This document shows positions 13,030 to 23,383 of a stretch of DNA of 64,000 nucleotides, in pieces. Both the position numbers and the translations under genes were made by a program. How positions within the stretch are numbered: the stretch's first letter is position 1; every line of letters starts with the position of its first letter. The DNA is from a virus. The stretch lies in the IMG/VR virus record IMGVR_UViG_3300035204_001773, positions 1-64,000 of that record; one strand, 5' to 3'. The notes below the pieces were generated by a model that saw only the letters and a program-made list of their open reading frames with translations, searched no databases and was not told the DNA's origin.

Positions 13030-13117
13030 TGGTAGCGAAGGCGGGACTCGAACCCGCAAGCCTTGTCCCAGCGGCAGATTTTAAGTCTGCTGTGTATACC
13101 AATTCCACCACTTCGCC
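13030..13117 (-). tRNA. tRNA-Leu(UAA)
   Basis: Cloverleaf, long variable arm, loop CT-TAA-AA, GGTTCGAGTCC, encoded CCA. Confidence 0.95.
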
Positions 13118-13122
13118 ATTTT

Positions 13123-13764
13123 TCATCGTCTAACTTTTCTTAAATATCCAATTGTGTTAAATGTGGTATTCCTTCCAAAAAAATCGCAATATTCCCGATC
13201 CAAAACAAATTTAGCACCACCGCGATCATAATCACATAAAAAATCCTCAACAGCACAAGCGGGGTTGTCTCTTAACTCTTCGCTCATCGGGTTTAGCACT
13301 CCTAAAATCCCGTCTTCTACGATATAATACGAATCTAGGCTAACTATTTTCGAAAATTTATCCAAAGCGGCAGAAACCCCACTATAAGTATGACAACCAT
13401 CATCTATTACCATTATTTTTTTAAAATCCCTAGCTAGAAGGACGTCATACTGCTCCCAGCCCTCAGTAAACCTAGTGATCCTAGGATCGTCTATTACCTT
13501 TTGGCTTACTACGCAATCTGGAGGATTTGGAATATCTATGGTATGAACAACGCCACCATGCGCCTCTTGTAAATCAGACAAGTATAAAGCTTGCCCCCCC
13601 ATATGAGTTCCTATTTCTATTACGAGATCAGGTTTAATTTCCCAGATAAGCATTTGATATAGCACGTAATCAAATGGGCAAGATAAACAGGGCACACCCT
13701 TATACTTAACTCTGCGATGTCCCTCGTAAATTGTGTTCAAGTTCAATTCAATGCTTTTATCCAT
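13123..13764 (-). CDS. CmcI / rhamnosyl O-methyltransferase-like protein
   Basis: PFDYVLYQMLIWEIKPDLVIEIGT..GG, DDGCH, YYIVED. Confidence 0.85.
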   Translation of the reverse strand: MDKSIELNLNTIYEGHRRVKYKGVPCLSCPFDYVLYQMLIWEIKPDLVIEIGTHMGGQALYLSDLQEAHGGVVHTIDIPNPPDCVVSQKVIDDPRITRFTEGWEQYDVLLARDFKKIMVIDDGCHTYSGVSAALDKFSKIVSLDSYYIVEDGILGVLNPMSEELRDNPACAVEDFLCDYDRGGAKFVLDREYCDFFGRNTTFNTIGYLRKVRR

Positions 13765-14320
13765 GCACTATCTCCTCCTTGTAAATCCATTTTATTTCAT
13801 TAAAATATTTTTTTGAAATACTTCGCTTCTTATCTCTATTTTTACCACCATTTAAAAACTTGTCTTTCGCATGGAATACTCCAAGAGCCAAGCCGCCCTC
13901 AAAGTTTAAAGATGACAAAACACAAAGTTTTCCCACGCATTCTGGCGGGATCATCCAAGAATTTTTTACGCTAAATTTGCAATCTATTTCTACCCCGTTT
14001 ATCTCAAAATCTAAAGCTCTACCATTTTTTAGGGAAAATATCCTTCTTATCTTATCTTCGAAAACAGAACCCATAATCGTTTTTTGAGTCTTGTCTAGCT
14101 CGCTTAAAGAGCTCTTTCCAAAAAGATCGAGAACCCGAGTAAGCGTAGTCCTCAACGCAAGCTCTATTTTATCCTCGTAGTTATCTACCTTTTTAAAAAA
14201 ATCAACTATGGTACGAGTAGAAGGATTCGAACCTCCGACCTGCGCGGTGTAAACGCGATGCTCTCCCGCTGAGCTATACTCGCTACGTTTTAAAAAAGCA
14301 CTCATAATTTTTAACGCCAT
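13757..14320 (-). CDS. NaeI-family endonuclease domain (start uncertain; frame is open through tRNA-Val)
   Basis: LDKTQKTIMG, EIDCKFS, WMIPPE, NRDKKR match NaeI N-terminal motifs as recalled. Confidence 0.8.
   Translation of the reverse strand: MALKIMSAFLKRSEYSSAGEHRVYTAQVGGSNPSTRTIVDFFKKVDNYEDKIELALRTTLTRVLDLFGKSSLSELDKTQKTIMGSVFEDKIRRIFSLKNGRALDFEINGVEIDCKFSVKNSWMIPPECVGKLCVLSSLNFEGGLALGVFHAKDKFLNGGKNRDKKRSISKKYFNEIKWIYKEEIVHG
14209..14283 (-). tRNA. tRNA-Val(UAC)
   Basis: Cloverleaf, loop TT-TAC-AC, GGTTCGAATCC, CCA. Confidence 0.95.
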
Positions 14321-14472
14321 CTATCTGGGTTCTGCTCCCTCTGCCTTCTCATATACTCCCTCTTCTGCCTGCGTCGTCTCTCTGGGTCTCTGGCGTCGTA
14401 CGCCCTGCGAGCTCTCCGTAAAGCTCGCTTGCCTTTTTCTGTCTTGGAATATGTTTTCTGGGATTTGGGCAT
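14311..14472 (-). CDS. 53-aa Arg-rich protein
   Basis: MPKSQKTYSKTEKGKRALRRA...; start reassigned using the repeated upstream element. Confidence 0.65.
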   Translation of the reverse strand: MPKSQKTYSKTEKGKRALRRARRAYDARDPERRRRQKREYMRRQREQNPDRWR

Positions 14473-14482
14473 ATCGTCCACC

Positions 14483-15634
14483 TTAGCTTTGATGTTCGTC
14501 GGGGGGGAATATTCGATTTTTTTTGATATCCCTCGATAAATCCTCACAAAGATCGTCGATTATTTTTTTTGAAACGCTAGGCATGCATATCATATGCGCC
14601 TCCCCCTCTTGAACCGCTAGCTTCCACTTTTTACATGTATCCTCGCTGGGTCTAGGAAAAACCACTGTGACTGCGTGATCATTTTTCCAAGCCCTGATAC
14701 CCGCGTCATTAAATTTACGAACAGCATATTCTGCATTTCTTATACAAAGCCTCACCTCTCTTTTAAAACCGTCGAAGCCATATTTTCTAATTGCATACCA
14801 TAATAATATTGGCGTGAATCCATTTCTAGAACCACTGATGGTACTATCCAATGACCCCACGTACTCCACCGCTCTCGAGACCCTACCGACGTTGCTCTTT
14901 AAGGCTAAGACCACGCCGCATGGAATTGGAGAGCCGATGAATTTGTGCCCACTAATTGATAGACTTTGTACTCCAGTGGTAAAATCAAAACGAGGAGAAT
15001 CGTCAATGAAGGGCAGCGTCATTCCTCCTAAAGCCGCGTCTACGTGAATATAATATTCTGGTATCGCTAGCTCTTTCAGAACCTTTTTTATTTCATTTAT
15101 ATTATCAAACCCCTCTTTCATGGTTGTGCCCATGTTGGCAAAAATAATAGGGGGAGCACTTCTCCAAGTAGCTATCATATCATGTAAGTCTTGATAATCC
15201 ATTTCGCCATTCTTCCTAGACTTTATCATTACGTGATCCATATTAAGCACTCGGATATTTTTACTGACACTATAATGAGTATCTTGAGAATAATAAACAA
15301 CGCCCTTGGGGTATAATTCTCTAGCTAAATAAAGACCATACATATTGCCTTCTGTCCCGCCATTTGTAACATAGCCCCAATAGTTATCTGATGGAGCATT
15401 ATGCAATTTAGCGAACCAATCTAAAACGTCTCTTTCTATACCTCTAGAATCTAAACCATAATAACTAGAACAAAAGGGATCACCCACGTTATTCAGGGGT
15501 ATAGCTAAAAAATCAAATAGCTCAGAATAATCAAACGCCGAATTTACAGGGTAACCGACGAAAGTCTCTTTCTCTTCAAGGAGAAACTCTTTGAACTGCT
15601 TTAATAAATCTTTATCTTTTTCGTTCAGCTGCAT
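14483..15634 (-). CDS. hdcA: PLP-dependent histidine decarboxylase-like (group II)
   Basis: GYP, LNNVGDP, WGYVTNGGTEGN, DTHYSV, HVDAAL, SGHKFIGSPIPCG, GSRNG. Confidence 0.88.
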   Translation of the reverse strand: MQLNEKDKDLLKQFKEFLLEEKETFVGYPVNSAFDYSELFDFLAIPLNNVGDPFCSSYYGLDSRGIERDVLDWFAKLHNAPSDNYWGYVTNGGTEGNMYGLYLARELYPKGVVYYSQDTHYSVSKNIRVLNMDHVMIKSRKNGEMDYQDLHDMIATWRSAPPIIFANMGTTMKEGFDNINEIKKVLKELAIPEYYIHVDAALGGMTLPFIDDSPRFDFTTGVQSLSISGHKFIGSPIPCGVVLALKSNVGRVSRAVEYVGSLDSTISGSRNGFTPILLWYAIRKYGFDGFKREVRLCIRNAEYAVRKFNDAGIRAWKNDHAVTVVFPRPSEDTCKKWKLAVQEGEAHMICMPSVSKKIIDDLCEDLSRDIKKNRIFPPDEHQS

Positions 15635-15692
15635 ATATCGTCCACTATAGTGAGTCGATCTCCCGGGGGGAATTATTCGTTTTTTTATGTAC

Positions 15693-15729
15693 AAAAAAAT
15701 AACCCCCTCAGAATTTCTCCAAGGGGGTC
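15693..15729 (-). terminator. Intrinsic terminator
   Basis: GACCCCCTTGGA...TCTGAGGGGGTT followed by a T-run. Confidence 0.75.
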
Positions 15730-15753
15730 TTGCTGTTTTGTCGTCTAACTAAG

Positions 15754-15951
15754 TTACTTTCTTTTTTTGACCGTTTCCGTTGGTTTGACCTCTGCTTTCA
15801 CAAAGGGAAGCGTTAAGCTTGCCCCTTTAGAACCAGCTGCGGCACCAAGTACTTCGGTCTCATTAGCTTTAGTGCCAATAGTAACACCAGTTTGACAACC
15901 CGACGCCACAATTAGCAACGCCCCAACAATTGATAGTAATACTGTCTTCAT
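15754..15951 (-). CDS. Small lipoprotein
   Basis: Lipobox-like ASGC after a hydrophobic leader. Confidence 0.7.
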   Translation of the reverse strand: MKTVLLSIVGALLIVASGCQTGVTIGTKANETEVLGAAAGSKGASLTLPFVKAEVKPTETVKKRK

Positions 15952-16001
15952 TTATTTAGTTTGAGGTGAGACGCGTCGATCATAACTCTATTCAAAAGAA
16001 A

Positions 16002-16402
16002 TGGTGGAAGCGGCGGGAGTCGAACCCGCGTCTTTAAAGCCATCGGCTTAAATATACTACAAGCTTAGTCAGTGTTAATTTTCGTGCTTCATCACTGACA
16101 ACTACACACGAGGTTGGAGGCACTTTATTTATCCTAGACTCCTCACCCTTCCTAGTTTTTTGCTCGCTGTCGACGCCCTATCTCCTTAACGAGCATCCAG
16201 AGTAGGACGGGGCAGAACTAAGCTGCCAGCGCGGCTTCTTGGAAACCGAAACGAGCGAGAATCTCGTCCGCTTCTGCTACCGAAGGAGCCATGTCAACAT
16301 TATCGTTGGCATATATGTTTTTGACAGTTTTTTTAAGAGGCCAACTATCATCCTCTGCTTGCAATTTAGCGTAAGGTTCTAAATCGAATCCAGTACGCTC
16401 CC
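16002..16402 (-). ncRNA. ssrA: tmRNA
   Basis: 5' GGGAGCGTACTGGATTCGA; 3' GCGGGTTCGACTCCCGCCGCTTCCACCA; G3.U acceptor pair; tag ORF 16310-16218 ending ALAA*. Confidence 0.95.
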
Positions 16403-16413
16403 ATAAAATAAAA

Positions 16414-16488
16414 TGGCAACCATACGTGCTTCGTCCATCGCACCGGTGACGAGCTCAAGCGGACATACTGCCGAATTACAGGTCGCCA
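16414..16488 (-). ncRNA. Candidate small structured RNA upstream of tmRNA
   Basis: Closing helix TGGCGACC/GGTTGCCA, inner GTCC/GGAC with AGTA/GAA loop; GC-rich island. Confidence 0.45.
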
Positions 16489-16512
16489 AAATTCTTTTCA
16501 CAATATATTACA

Positions 16513-16596
16513 TTATTTTTTAGTGATATACCATAAATAAATCATTAATCCTATAAACGGTAACCACAGTAATGATAACATTAAAATTTCCATCAT
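16513..16596 (-). CDS. 27-aa membrane peptide
   Basis: Hand translation MMEILMLSLLWLPFIGLMIYLWYITKK; ATGA-coupled. Confidence 0.45.
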   Translation of the reverse strand: MMEILMLSLLWLPFIGLMIYLWYITKK

Positions 16597-17117
16597 TTAT
16601 AAAATGTAACATTTAAGTTCCACGGCTCGCTTTCATTACGTTTAAAATTTTGATAACCACATCTTTCAGCTAGGCTCTCTAGTGAATGTATATCATACCC
16701 ACTTTTATGTACGTCCCAAAGAAATTTATCGGCCGTAAAGCTGCCTAGCCCATTGGCCTCTTGTTGCCAACCATAAATGCTAGCAATGGCGTGCCTAAAG
16801 CTGGGCGTGCCGTTGCCGTCTCTATTATTAAAATATTCTAAATATTCTTTCGCATGATAATGCAAATCTGGAACCTCCATCCTAACTTCTCCACCTTTTT
16901 TTAGAATTTTGCGCCAAACCCCTAGGGTCTTTTCGCCTTGAGCGAATGTAAGGTGCTCGAACATGTGCCTCGAATAAATTGCCTCTATGCTATTTGCTTC
17001 GACGTGGTGATGAATGTCCCAGCAGGCGCAGACATATGTCACCCCTAAAAGGTTTCTAATATCGGAACTAACATACCCCTCTTTCGCGTTGTCACCCGCT
17101 CCAAATTCTATTTTCAT
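16593..17117 (-). CDS. SAM methyltransferase (type 11-like)
   Basis: IEFGAG, IYSRHMFEHL, LKKGG...VPD. Confidence 0.85.
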   Translation of the reverse strand: MKIEFGAGDNAKEGYVSSDIRNLLGVTYVCACWDIHHHVEANSIEAIYSRHMFEHLTFAQGEKTLGVWRKILKKGGEVRMEVPDLHYHAKEYLEYFNNRDGNGTPSFRHAIASIYGWQQEANGLGSFTADKFLWDVHKSGYDIHSLESLAERCGYQNFKRNESEPWNLNVTFYK

Positions 17118-17124
17118 AATCTCA

Positions 17125-17201
17125 TGGTACTCCCGGTGCGACTCGAACGCACGACCCTCTGTTTAGAAGACAGATGCTCTATCCAACTGAGCTACAGGAG
17201 C
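17125..17201 (-). tRNA. tRNA-Arg(UCU)
   Basis: Cloverleaf, loop CT-TCT-AA, CCA; own TTGACA promoter 17212-17241. Confidence 0.95.
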
Positions 17202-20826: not shown

Positions 20827-21237
20827 ATGACTATAGATGATGTTAGAAACGCTCTCTGGAGTTGGTTTGAATCTAATGACTCTTTTGAAATAGAGAGAGA
20901 TGGATCTAAATTATTACTATTAACCGATGGGGAGATGGACGAAAAACAAGCAGGAATTAAATGCGCATTAGCAGACTTCGCTGAAAGCGGGGTCGTAAAA
21001 AAATGTGAGCACAAAGAAAAAACGTACTATATACTTACCAAGAGTATAGACATGTACGAACAAAGTGTCTCGCTTAACTTCGTAACCGCGAGGCAACTTG
21101 CCTTAACAGTGAATAATTTCTGTGAAGTCATTGGCGATAAAACCGACTGGGTAGATAGAGAATCTGTTCAGGAGAAGGACGTGAGAAGCTTAATCGCTAT
21201 CATAAATATATTAGAAGAAAAATTAAAAGACGCTTGA
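20827..21237 (+). CDS. Hypothetical protein
   Basis: First plus-strand gene after the divergent AT-rich region. Confidence 0.75.
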   Translation: MTIDDVRNALWSWFESNDSFEIERDGSKLLLLTDGEMDEKQAGIKCALADFAESGVVKKCEHKEKTYYILTKSIDMYEQSVSLNFVTARQLALTVNNFCEVIGDKTDWVDRESVQEKDVRSLIAIINILEEKLKDA

Positions 21238-21267
21238 CATAAACATAAAAATGAGCATAGTATAGAG

Positions 21268-21690
21268 TCTTAGCTTTTTACTAAGCGGCGAATAGCTTTC
21301 GGGGGTAATCCCGAATCAAACACGTAAGAGACAACAGGCCCGTAAAAAGACTACAAACGAACAAGGCTAATAACCTTGCTGTTATTTCGGGAAAAAGCGG
21401 CAGTTGAGTTTGTACGGAATATTAATTCCGATGTTAGAGACTTCATCCTCTCAAGAGGAAAAGGCTGACAGTCAACAAAATAAGTCCCGCCGCATAAATG
21501 TAAAAGTTATACATAGCCAGAGTGGTTGTGAGCTAGGCTAAAAGCGGCCAATGCGAAGGACTGAAGCGGGCACTCATGGACAGAAGATTCTAGTAGAGAG
21601 TGGCATCTCTAAGTTGACATGCTATGTTCTTATCCAACTTCAGATGAAAAGTATATAATCATGGAAAGGCTGACAGTCAAATCTTAAACT
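21268..21690 (+). ncRNA. Large structured ncRNA candidate (~420 nt)
   Basis: Own promoter TTGACA 21234-21239 / TAGTAT 21258-21263; no ORF of 60 aa or more; more than 10 helices; 16-nt exact internal repeat. Confidence 0.75.
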
Positions 21691-21693
21691 TAA

Positions 21694-21769
21694 GCGAGTG
21701 TAGCTCAGTTGGTAGAGCGTGTCGTTGCCAACGATAAGGTCGTGGGTTCGATTCCCATCACTCGCTCCA
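21694..21769 (+). tRNA. tRNA-Gly(GCC)
   Basis: Cloverleaf, loop TT-GCC-AA, GGTTCGATTCC, CCA. Confidence 0.95.
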
Positions 21770-21827
21770 TTCTTAATTTAAAAAAGTTCTTGACAAACTA
21801 TATAAAAAAGAGTTATTATAAGGAATA

Positions 21828-22439
21828 ATGAATAGAACACCGATTGGATTGGCAGGAGTGGCTGGAGCGGGGAAGGATTTATTTTTCTCTCTTCTGAGCA
21901 GGAAATTACCCGTTAGGAGATTTGCTCTCGCGGACGAATTAAAGAGAGAGACAACGCATCTTTGCATGGAAGCGTATGGAGTTGACCCTATGAATTGTAG
22001 TAGGAAGGAAAAAGAGGAGATAAGATCATTTCTGGTTGACTATGGGACGCGAAAGAGGAGTGCTTCAAACGGCAGGCACTGGATTGATAAGCTTGATTAT
22101 AAAGTAAGGGGGTTCTTACTAAATGCTGTCACGAACGACATACCTGTTGTTACGGATATTCGATATCAGGAGTATGATAATGATGAGGTTTATTGGGTCA
22201 AGGAGGAGATGAAGGGAGTCTTGGTTCACATATCTCAGTTTGAAATTCAACGAGCAACTGGCGAGAAGCAGTATCGTCAGCCAGCCAACTCAGAAGAAGA
22301 AAGGATGGACCCAATTGTCAAGTCTCTAGCTAATTATGAGATTTCATGGCCTAGGGTTAAAGAAGATATTGGAAGATCAGCAATATTAAATCAACACGTT
22401 AATAACTTCGTAGAATGGTATAAGAATGAGTATAAATGA
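21828..22439 (+). CDS. Deoxynucleoside monophosphate kinase
   Basis: GLAGVAGAGKD, ALADELK, R..LVDYGT, VVTDIRY..E. Confidence 0.85.
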   Translation: MNRTPIGLAGVAGAGKDLFFSLLSRKLPVRRFALADELKRETTHLCMEAYGVDPMNCSRKEKEEIRSFLVDYGTRKRSASNGRHWIDKLDYKVRGFLLNAVTNDIPVVTDIRYQEYDNDEVYWVKEEMKGVLVHISQFEIQRATGEKQYRQPANSEEERMDPIVKSLANYEISWPRVKEDIGRSAILNQHVNNFVEWYKNEYK

Positions 22440-22761: not shown

Positions 22762-23350
22762 CAATGTATTAATTAACAGGATAAAGGGAGAGAATTGTAG
22801 CGAAAGTTTTTCAGAGCTTTCAAACAGGCATGAAAATTTATACTATAAAATATGCCAAAAATATTCTCCCGCTTTAAAGTCTGTGGGTGTTTTCTTAAAT
22901 GATGTTTTTGATGATAAAAATTTTATAATATATAAAGCTTTACAGTCATTCGATCACAATAAAAACACGAAATTCTCCACATGGCTAGGTAATCACGCTA
23001 GATATCATTGTCTAAACTTCATAAATTCTAATAATAAATATCTTCATTGCGAGGGCGATGATCTAACCTTCTTTATAGAAAGAAGAAACGTTCTAGAGTC
23101 TTCCACTAAACCTACAGACGAGGAACAAAGTTTAACTGATCAAATTTTTGATGTTTTATCACGACTTAAAGACGAGAGGATTTACTTGATATACAAAGAG
23201 CGGTACGCAAAAGACAAAGAGAAACAAACATGGACCAAGATAGCTAAAAAATTGAATATCAGCACGCAGACAGTCATCAATCTTCATACCAAAGGACGAA
23301 ATATCCTACAGAACAAAATGAAAACACAAAAATATTTAGATTTTGTTTGA
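22751..23350 (+). CDS. Phage sigma70-family sigma factor
   Basis: Region 2 (ALQSFD...KFSTWLGNHARY) and region 4 HTH (TWTKIAKKLNISTQTV). Confidence 0.85.
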   Translation: MENDNVLINRIKGENCSESFSELSNRHENLYYKICQKYSPALKSVGVFLNDVFDDKNFIIYKALQSFDHNKNTKFSTWLGNHARYHCLNFINSNNKYLHCEGDDLTFFIERRNVLESSTKPTDEEQSLTDQIFDVLSRLKDERIYLIYKERYAKDKEKQTWTKIAKKLNISTQTVINLHTKGRNILQNKMKTQKYLDFV

Positions 23351-23383
23351 CAAAGATTTATAAATAGAATATACTAAGAGAAT

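Follow-up and report, generated by a model that had tools for sequence, protein, structure and literature searches.

The window analysed here, a 64,000-nt stretch of viral DNA, belongs to an IMG/VR virus record of 109 kb and 64% completeness. Between the end of a gene for a 136-aa winged-helix protein (20827..21237, plus strand) and a gene for tRNA-Gly(GCC) (21694..21769, plus strand) lies an interval, 21238–21693, in which no ORFs of more than 45 aa were found. The original prediction took this interval for the largest ORF-free gap; when ORFs of at least 60 aa are counted, it ranks second in the window, after the gap with the tmRNA gene. The interval has its own sigma-70-type promoter on the plus strand (21234..21263), as had been predicted, with a -35 element TTGACA at 21234–39 and a -10 element TAGTAT at 21258–63, which together match the consensus at 10 of 12 positions. 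From the position of this promoter, the transcript is predicted to start near 21270. Its 3′ end would be produced by RNase P cleavage at the 5′ end of the tRNA-Gly, which lies directly downstream, again as predicted. This delimits a structured RNA of ~424 nt (21270..21693, plus strand), identified through its homologues and their covariation.

The order of genes at the locus is winged-helix gene, RNA, (dNMP kinase), (111-aa gene), sigma factor and glycosyltransferase, with the sigma gene directly following the RNA in four clades. The upstream winged-helix gene is syntenic, and the structural model of its product (pLDDT 90.7) has its best fold matches, all of them weak, to MecI, BlaI and MarR (E 0.007–0.03). 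Pfam and PHROGs searches with this 136-aa protein and with the product of the 111-aa gene returned nothing significant. A second promoter, TTGACA-18-TATTAT (21790..21819, plus strand, 11 of 12 consensus positions), precedes the dNMP kinase gene (21828–22439), and in the window the RNA is a unit of its own between the promoters at 21234 and 21790. A promoter between the RNA and the kinase gene is also kept in L002 and L003.

In nearly all loci the next ORF shares the strand of the RNA, whether it encodes the kinase or the sigma factor, and begins 30–85 nt past the second of two repeated sequences of the RNA, the R boxes described below. The L064 clade departs from this, with 342 nt up to the next ORF, and the RNA of the L024 clade is immediately followed by the kinase AUG. 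Terminator-like sites were seen in the spacer of only five of 38 loci, and a canonical one only in L047, where ~8 nt separate the terminator U-tract from the sigma start codon; most loci have neither a promoter nor a terminator between the RNA and the operon. Within the operon, terminator-like sites are not enriched (11 versus 7.4 ± 2.9). Since the next ORF is close and on the same strand and the spacer mostly lacks a terminator, the RNA would in most relatives physically constitute the 5′ leader of the kinase/sigma operon.

Distribution of the RNA family

A search of viral contigs with the downstream protein yielded 18 loci. The tRNA-Gly is missing from all of these 18 related loci and follows the RNA in the window lineage only. 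In three of the 18, a stretch ~70% identical to the gap lies directly upstream of the same gene, without a tRNA. The RNA homologues are ~70% identical where the adjoining proteins are only 27–64% identical. Further loci from viral and metagenome contigs were recruited with the invariant motifs of the RNA used as patterns, and a profile search confirmed the element in 66 + 19 loci (~85) with 52 + 12 distinct sequences (~64), ~40 of them full length. The homologues occupy the equivalent genomic position in these viral and metagenome loci, and the -35 element is kept in relatives; other clades have promoters in the same relative place that match 10 to 12 of the 12 consensus positions. The clades are strongly divergent from one another. 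The RNA measures 360–430 nt across the family, with the L024 clade having the shorter form of 360 nt, and consists of a fixed core of ~310 nt followed by a 3′ tail that varies among relatives.

Rfam searches at gathering and E-value thresholds (E <= 10 for the window, E <= 1 for eight homologous loci) returned only tRNAs and the tmRNA from the window and the eight relatives; the gap itself matched no family, even at E <= 10. Among GenBank phages, blastn with three family members had a tRNA as its sole match and tblastn with the sigma factor and the upstream protein had no match, the latter indicating that there is no cultured relative. A two-block motif scanned against 185,579 bacterial and archaeal genomes gave 10 pattern matches, none of which fits the family profile; these matches are thus attributable to chance, and the scan offered no clue to the host. 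The family is so far known from uncultured phages only. Homologue collection and covariation analysis, both suggested with the original prediction, thus yielded ~85 loci and a covarying fold. What had been put forward as a fallback, a large phage non-coding RNA unrelated to introns, is supported by this conserved, covarying, promoter-driven family without an Rfam match.

Secondary structure and pseudoknots

Folding of the window sequence by itself gave z = -1.95 against shuffles for the plus strand and -1.92 for the minus strand. Because thermodynamics alone is weak and sequence alone proves little, the case for an RNA rests on comparative data. Helices were derived by hand from alignments and then tested on a 39-sequence full-length alignment, A2. 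In the resulting model of 86 pairs, 86.0% of the cells are paired, versus 75.6% after shuffling of partners and 35–47% in slid controls, in which the partners were shifted by 1–3 columns. Both sides vary in 54 of the 86 pairs, and the covariation score of 0.324 (0.165 for shuffled partners) was reached in none of 500 shuffles. The many G-U pairs in the covarying helices fix the plus strand as the RNA strand. From comparison of sequences, the existence of the RNA, its strand, the family and the fold can be regarded as shown.

The RNA consists of two domains tied together by a pseudoknot helix that resembles P7 of group I introns, and a second pseudoknot, PK1, lies within the 5′ domain. The 5′ domain is closed by P2 stacked on a P3-like long-range helix. 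The 5′ strand of P2 (21274..21281, plus strand), located in the leader, pairs with 21500–21506, leaving U21279 bulged; by hand, P2 can be followed as GUUCUUUGU/GCAAAGAAU in L020, GUUCUUUAC/GUAAAGAUC in L064 and CUUUU-AC/GUAAAAG in the window, and by columns both sides vary in five of its nine pairs. A pairing of the leader with the strand after Hm, the helix that closes the 3′ domain, was dropped in favour of the better supported P2. The P3-like helix pairs GCGGCG (21285..21290, plus strand) with CGCCGC (21488–21493). It is 92.3% paired, varies on both sides in five of six pairs and exists in at least six sequence versions, among them GCGGUG/CACCGC, CCGAUU/AAUCGG and GCGGCA/UGCCGC.

Next comes a conserved UAGCUU box, designated X (21293..21299, plus strand), which has two candidate partners, 21433–36 and 21461–67. 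With these, 89% and 86% of the cells are paired, with almost no compensatory change. The second pairing corresponds to TAGCT/AAGGCTG, the P3-like helix as initially proposed, which is compatible with 86% of the cells and gains next to no compensatory change. Hairpin Ha (UUCGGG/CCCGAA, 21298..21315, plus strand) is supported by covariation, one of its column pairs being AU in 18 sequences, GC in 17 and GU in four. It is followed by a nearly invariant joining strand, CGUAAGAGAC..CAGGCCCGUAAAAAGAC (21320..21351, plus strand), which holds the 5′ strand of PK1, CCCG, at 21339–42. The 3′ strand of PK1, CGGG (21388–91, plus strand), is located within the invariant loop UUAUUUCGGGAAAAAGCGG of a three-way junction (21352..21414, plus strand) made up of Hb (21352–58/21408–14), Hc (21362–66/21374–78) and Hd (21379–81/21401–03). 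PK1 is 100% paired, with C-G replaced by U-A in three sequences; all pairs of Hb and Hc vary on both sides, and Hd is found as CUG/CAG, GAG/CUU and ACG/CGU.

Downstream of the junction, the variable hairpin He (CGGAAU/AUUCCG, 21415..21430, plus strand) varies on both sides in four of five pairs. A conserved strand of the GCUAGAAACUU type (AUGUUAGAGACUU in the window) and the 91.7% paired hairpin Hf (CCUCU/AGAGG) then occupy 21431..21458 (plus strand). The 5′ strand of the P7-like helix, AGUCC (21483..21487, plus strand), is located immediately 5′ of the P3-like helix's closing strand; its partner is GGACU at 21558–21562. The helix is 92.8% paired, both sides vary in three of its five pairs, and compensatory versions include AAUCC/GGAUU and AGUUC/GAACU. 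The 3′ domain (21517..21579, plus strand) is closed by Hm, CCAGAGUG at 21517–24 with CACUCAUGG at 21571–79, in which eight of nine pairs vary on both sides. Besides the P7-like 3′ strand GGACU, this domain contains the plus-strand hairpin Hr/Hq (GC 21532–33/GC 21553–54 and GGCU 21536–39/GGCC 21546–49); one column pair of Hq is GC in 19 sequences, AU in 14 and GU in five. A 3′ tail of ~110 nt comes next; its portion at 21594..21664 (plus strand), ahead of the second R box, contains hairpin Hn (21594–99/21606–11), a conserved GCUAU (21621–25) and an A-rich stretch. Several of the joining strands of the RNA are invariant, which speaks for a conserved binding pocket or active site. As a side observation, which is not relied on, contigs from four DNA sequencing runs contain one joint, 21401 to 21546, at a 9-nt repeat and with a short side of 25 nt.

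The helices first proposed from the window alone fared unevenly. TTCGGG/CCCGAA, TACAAAC/GTTTGTA, CAAGG/CCTTG, CGGAAT/ATTCCG and TCCTCT/AGAGGA are all conserved, with compensatory changes in relatives. TAGAGA/TCTCTA coincides, by eye, with a hairpin where most clades have one; it was tested as part of a set that gave no signal. GCCGC/GCGGC (the P9-like helix), ATGTA/TACAT, TAGCC/GGCTA and AGTTG/CAACT did not covary in the joint test of six helices, namely these four, TAGAGA and the originally proposed P7. As a set, the six were 62.6% paired versus 61.5% when shuffled, and their covariation score was 0.103 versus 0.100. Several of those that failed overlap helices that do covary.

Comparison with group I introns and other known RNAs

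The nearest known structure is the group I intron core, which the RNA resembles in topology only. The helices 21285–90/21488–93 and 21483–87/21558–62 cross each other in the strand order of P3 and P7, the P7-like 5′ strand adjoins the P3-like 3′ strand, and both helices covary. There is also an AAU after the first strand, the P7-like helix is preceded by an A-rich strand, and a hairpin separates the 3′ strands of the P3-like and P7-like helices. In contrast to group I introns, the RNA has neither exons nor splice sites and no recognisable P4–P6 stack, and its helix Hm crosses the P7-like helix. The Rfam intron models (Intron_gpI and its subtypes) found no match in the window at E <= 10 or in eight loci at E <= 1. 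The P7 that had been proposed, GAGACTT/AAGTCC, does not survive comparison: of 39 sequences, 32 have no pair at its columns 191/245 and 13 have none at 193/243, and the L024 clade lacks the 5′ strand altogether. Its 3′ strand AAGUCC pairs instead with GGACU at 21558–62, for which compensatory versions are known. In the P7-like helix that is supported, the would-be guanosine-site pair is G21484–C21561 (columns 243/348), the only pair of that helix with a G on the 5′ strand. It is GC in 33 sequences, GU in three and AU in two, L003 and L096, and by hand its equivalent is A-U in the L043 clade as well (AAUCC/GGAUU).

The RNA is predicted to begin ~10 nt after its own promoter, between an upstream ORF that stops at 21237 and downstream genes with starts of their own. 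With the RNA starting just after a promoter and its flanks being complete, separate genes, there is nothing to splice; the absence of an interrupted gene had been noted correctly. Because the guanosine-site pair is not conserved, exons are lacking, no intron model matches and the initially proposed P7 and P9 fail, we conclude from the sequence comparison that the RNA is not a group I intron. A degenerate or repurposed core, which would make the RNA a stand-alone ribozyme of group I intron descent, would explain the crossing helices in P3/P7 order with abutting second and third strands, the AAU joiner, the A-rich strand and the hairpin before the P7-like 3′ strand, and phage group I introns are frequent in nucleotide-metabolism genes. 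Nevertheless, the unmatched intron models (E <= 10), the A-U at the guanosine site in L003, L096 and the L043 clade, the missing P4–P6-like stack, the promoter ~10 nt upstream with complete flanking genes and no splicing context, and the failure of the first-proposed P7, P9 and related helices to covary make such an origin very improbable. RNase P RNA was considered and rejected. The Rfam RNase P models did not match, and the look-alikes of its conserved regions, GUAAGAG, AAGUCC and AGAUGAAAAG, are in the wrong order; AAGUCC is engaged with GGACU, and the canonical order of CR-I to CR-V around P4 is not found.

It is rare for a new class of bacterial or phage RNA to exceed 300 nt and to have a complex tertiary fold, and earlier ones proved to be ribozymes, the cores of RNPs or, in recent work, RNA cages. 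GOLLD and ROOL, to which no function is assigned, are often phage-borne and located beside tRNA genes. Like them, the RNA described here is large, ornate and non-coding, and it has a tRNA neighbour in the window lineage only. It is shorter than GOLLD and ROOL, the structures of which have been described (bioRxiv 10.1101/2024.12.08.627333). The Rfam models of the two families had no match in the window or in eight relatives. The stable RNAs species 1 and 2 of phage T4 are likewise phage-encoded and are made together with tRNAs. They are much smaller than the RNA of this family, in which the link to a tRNA is confined to the window lineage, and we know of no homology between the two. The put element of phage HK022 comprises ~70 nt with two stem-loops. 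HK022 putRNA is described as acting alone on the polymerase that transcribes it (PMC9378689). HK022 putL/putR and the Bacillus EAR element share with our RNA the arrangement of a promoter-proximal folded RNA heading an early operon, here of a phage; the RNA of this family differs in being 360–430 nt long with two pseudoknots and has no likeness to them in sequence or structure, and antitermination by it is hypothetical. None of the known families fits, and the nearest, the group I intron, fails in two of its defining features. We rate the RNA as a new class among the large structured RNAs of phages, which its function may later place among existing regulatory leaders.

The R boxes and possible functions

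An unusual feature of the RNA is a pair of identical sequences, the R boxes. In the window, copy 1 (AAAGGCUGACAGUCAA, 21460..21475, plus strand) is repeated without change as copy 2 (21665..21680, plus strand); in the 109-kb record, AAAGGCTGACAGTCAA is found at 21460 and 21665 only. The pair is present in every clade except L024, with boxes 12–18 nt long and 185–215 nt apart. The sequence is clade-specific, yet both copies are identical within each RNA, so that the two co-vary across clades: the box reads AAAGGATAAGCAGTCA in the main clade, AAGCTGGCAGTTC in the L043 clade, AAAGCTGGTAGTCT in the L072 clade, AAAGGAAATGGTGG in the L064 clade, GGAAGGAAGAAGTTAAA in the L047 clade and AAAGTTGGCAGTCG in the L160 clade. 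Within the main clade, L135, L081 and L140 have a C-to-U change in both copies. The clade that lacks copy 1 (L024) also lacks copy 2, which indicates that the two belong together and are dispensable for the core.

A comparable situation is known from the boxB elements of lambda nutL and nutR, which occur as two like copies per phage and differ between related phages; the lambda copies are alike because both bind the same phage protein. The R boxes are similarly paired and identical within a phage and different between relatives. Unlike boxB, they are both part of one transcript, 185–215 nt apart, and are not hairpins.

Four regions were considered as partners of the R box: the upstream arm, the tail, the 45 nt downstream and the X/leader region. 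The mean z values of the duplexes against shuffles ranged from +0.07 to -0.76. Models in which the box would form the 3′ strand of a module stem, one half of a terminator or part of a trp-like relay of alternative helices were rejected, the duplex energies being no better than those of shuffles. As no partner strand of the R box exceeds the shuffled controls, we have no working switch model. No site in the whole 109-kb record could serve as an antisense target of the R box at fewer than 3 mismatches in 16 positions. A reverse transcriptase (PF00078), sought in the same record (64% complete) in connection with the idea that the boxes serve template switching, was not found either. The best remaining idea is that the R boxes are two equal sites for one lineage-specific partner.

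As to function, we tentatively favour a cis-acting leader of the kinase/sigma operon, to which we give a probability of roughly 0.4. When folded, it would either act on the polymerase by which it was transcribed or sense a ligand or protein, and would thereby set the amount of transcription or translation that reaches the kinase/sigma operon; the twin R boxes would serve as the two equal binding sites of a lineage-specific partner. In the window lineage, a tRNA gene and the second promoter would have been inserted, so that an RNA–tRNA precursor would be made from which the RNA would presumably be released by RNase P. This reading is based on the lack of a promoter or terminator before the next gene in most relatives, on the combination of a constant core and variable tails that is typical of regulatory leaders, and on the putRNA precedent. 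What we say about the ends, stability, partners and activity of the RNA we infer.

Several observations go against a cis-acting leader. The size of the RNA is one of them, as its ~310-nt core with two pseudoknots is, to our knowledge, far above that of any cis-acting antiterminator or riboswitch aptamer; the missing switch partner of the R boxes and the lack of enrichment of terminator-like sites in the operon are others, as is the L064 clade with its next ORF 342 nt away. Furthermore, the RNA is fully conserved despite a promoter that bypasses it in the window, L002 and L003, and despite the tRNA in the window, which fits a job independent of the operon in cis. Nearly as likely as the leader, therefore, is a stable trans-acting RNA, a ribozyme or the RNA of an RNP, which would be cut from an early precursor, in the window by RNase P at the tRNA, and would act on a conserved host or phage target while its R boxes bind a lineage-specific protein or RNA. 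Its size, the two pseudoknots and the invariant A-rich joiners are typical of ribozymes and RNP RNAs. Such an RNA would remain intact, as is seen, where a promoter (and in the window a tRNA) uncouples the operon, could form a self-contained unit between the promoters at 21234 and 21790, could lie 342 nt from the next ORF as in the L064 clade, and would not need a significant internal partner for its R boxes. However, most loci lack a terminator or other defined 3′ end, and the 109-kb genome contains no antisense target of the R box. The winged-helix protein, a candidate partner, does not help either, since the presence of its gene does not track the R boxes: the box-less L024 clade has the gene, and in the box-bearing L064 clade it was not found near the RNA.

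The same mismatch in the L024 and L064 clades counts against the R boxes being DNA operators, overlaid on the RNA gene, for a lineage-specific protein such as the winged-helix protein encoded upstream. An operator would account for copies that are identical, and not just complementary to something, in all box-bearing clades while their sequence is clade-specific, for the paired C-to-U change in L135, L081 and L140, for RNA partners of the box that do not exceed chance, and for the MecI/BlaI/MarR-like fold of the neighbouring gene product. The boxes, however, are palindromic in the window only, the promoter is 200 and 400 bp upstream of them, and operators would account for the boxes alone and leave the RNA unexplained; we consider this reading quite unlikely. 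Somewhat less unlikely, although still doubtful, is a new catalytic or self-assembling RNA, in which a P3/P7-type pseudoknot core would function without splicing and two interchangeable arms, each ending in an R box, would compete for, or bridge, one docking site on the core. If so, the RNA would be a two-state switch or would form head-to-tail oligomers.

The RNA heads an early gene block that includes the phage's own sigma factor, and phages may use it as a novel means of timing or protecting early transcription. It has a group I-like knot outside an intron context and, as an unusual signature, twin boxes that change together across lineages, and the many natural variants in the family make it well suited to structural and transcription studies. 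Finally, the two R boxes are preceded by sequences that are weakly alike. Comparison of the tail (21594–21664) with 21415–21459 gave z ~2 in six clades, with the identical positions always aligned, and given this weak but consistently aligned likeness the tail looks like an old, weak duplicate of the arm that extends from He to the first R box.

Sequence variation and short repeats within the RNA

Over window positions 21189–21693, we found a variant contig in run X3 (record 9) that is approximately 94% identical to the window, with 14 substitutions in the 68 nt that precede the start of the RNA as opposed to about 10 in the 430-nt RNA itself. Three of the substitutions (C21274A, G21506A and T21507C) are located in the two strands of P2, the leader helix with a bulged U21279. 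Together these changes would shift the register of P2 and remove the bulge. With a depth of 2, the contig provides weak evidence.

Apart from the twin R boxes, the RNA contains a second direct repeat, AAAAGCGGC (21393–21401 and 21540–21548). One DNA contig from run X2 shows an apparent join across this repeat that skips 144 nt and extends just 25 nt past the joint; this joint may come from another phage or may be an assembly artefact. The self-complementary tetranucleotide AGCU occurs at 21293–97, in the conserved X box, at 21532–35, in the region of Hr (part of the 3′-domain hairpin), and at 21621–24, in the tail loop, and all three sites are conserved and either unpaired or ambiguous. In most other clades, AGCU is also found in the strand that follows the variable hairpin He, at the position of window 21433–36. 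The recurrent AGCU could mediate loop-loop or intermolecular contacts.

Genes and promoters flanking the RNA

The constant upstream neighbour of the RNA is a gene at 20827–21237 (+), which has homologues in approximately 50 loci; the products are 136–200 aa long, some of them ending in a lysine-rich tail. The window protein had no match in Pfam or PHROG. Its structure is predicted with confidence (pLDDT 90.7) and places two long helices after a winged-helix domain, with MecI, BlaI and MarR as weak fold matches (E 0.007–0.03).

Downstream, the tRNA-Gly gene (21694–21769) and the consensus promoter behind it (21790–21819) are insertions when compared with most relatives. This promoter is shared with L002 and L003, both of which lack tRNA-Gly. 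A near-consensus sigma-70 promoter, TTGACA-17-TATACT (23347–23375, +), lies directly 3′ of the gene for the sigma factor. Several short host-polymerase units divide the early region between them.

In the bridging locus L160 (8681–9193, −), the longest kinase ORF begins upstream of the second R box, R2, so that R2 would fall in kinase codons 6–10; an alternative TTG start is located within R2.

Phage tmRNA and nearby tRNA genes

The window also encodes a phage tmRNA (16002–16402, −; Rfam, 146 bits) with the tag peptide ANDNVDMAPSVAEADEILARFGFQEAALAA, and genes for tRNA-Leu, tRNA-Val and tRNA-Arg are found near it, within 13030–17201.
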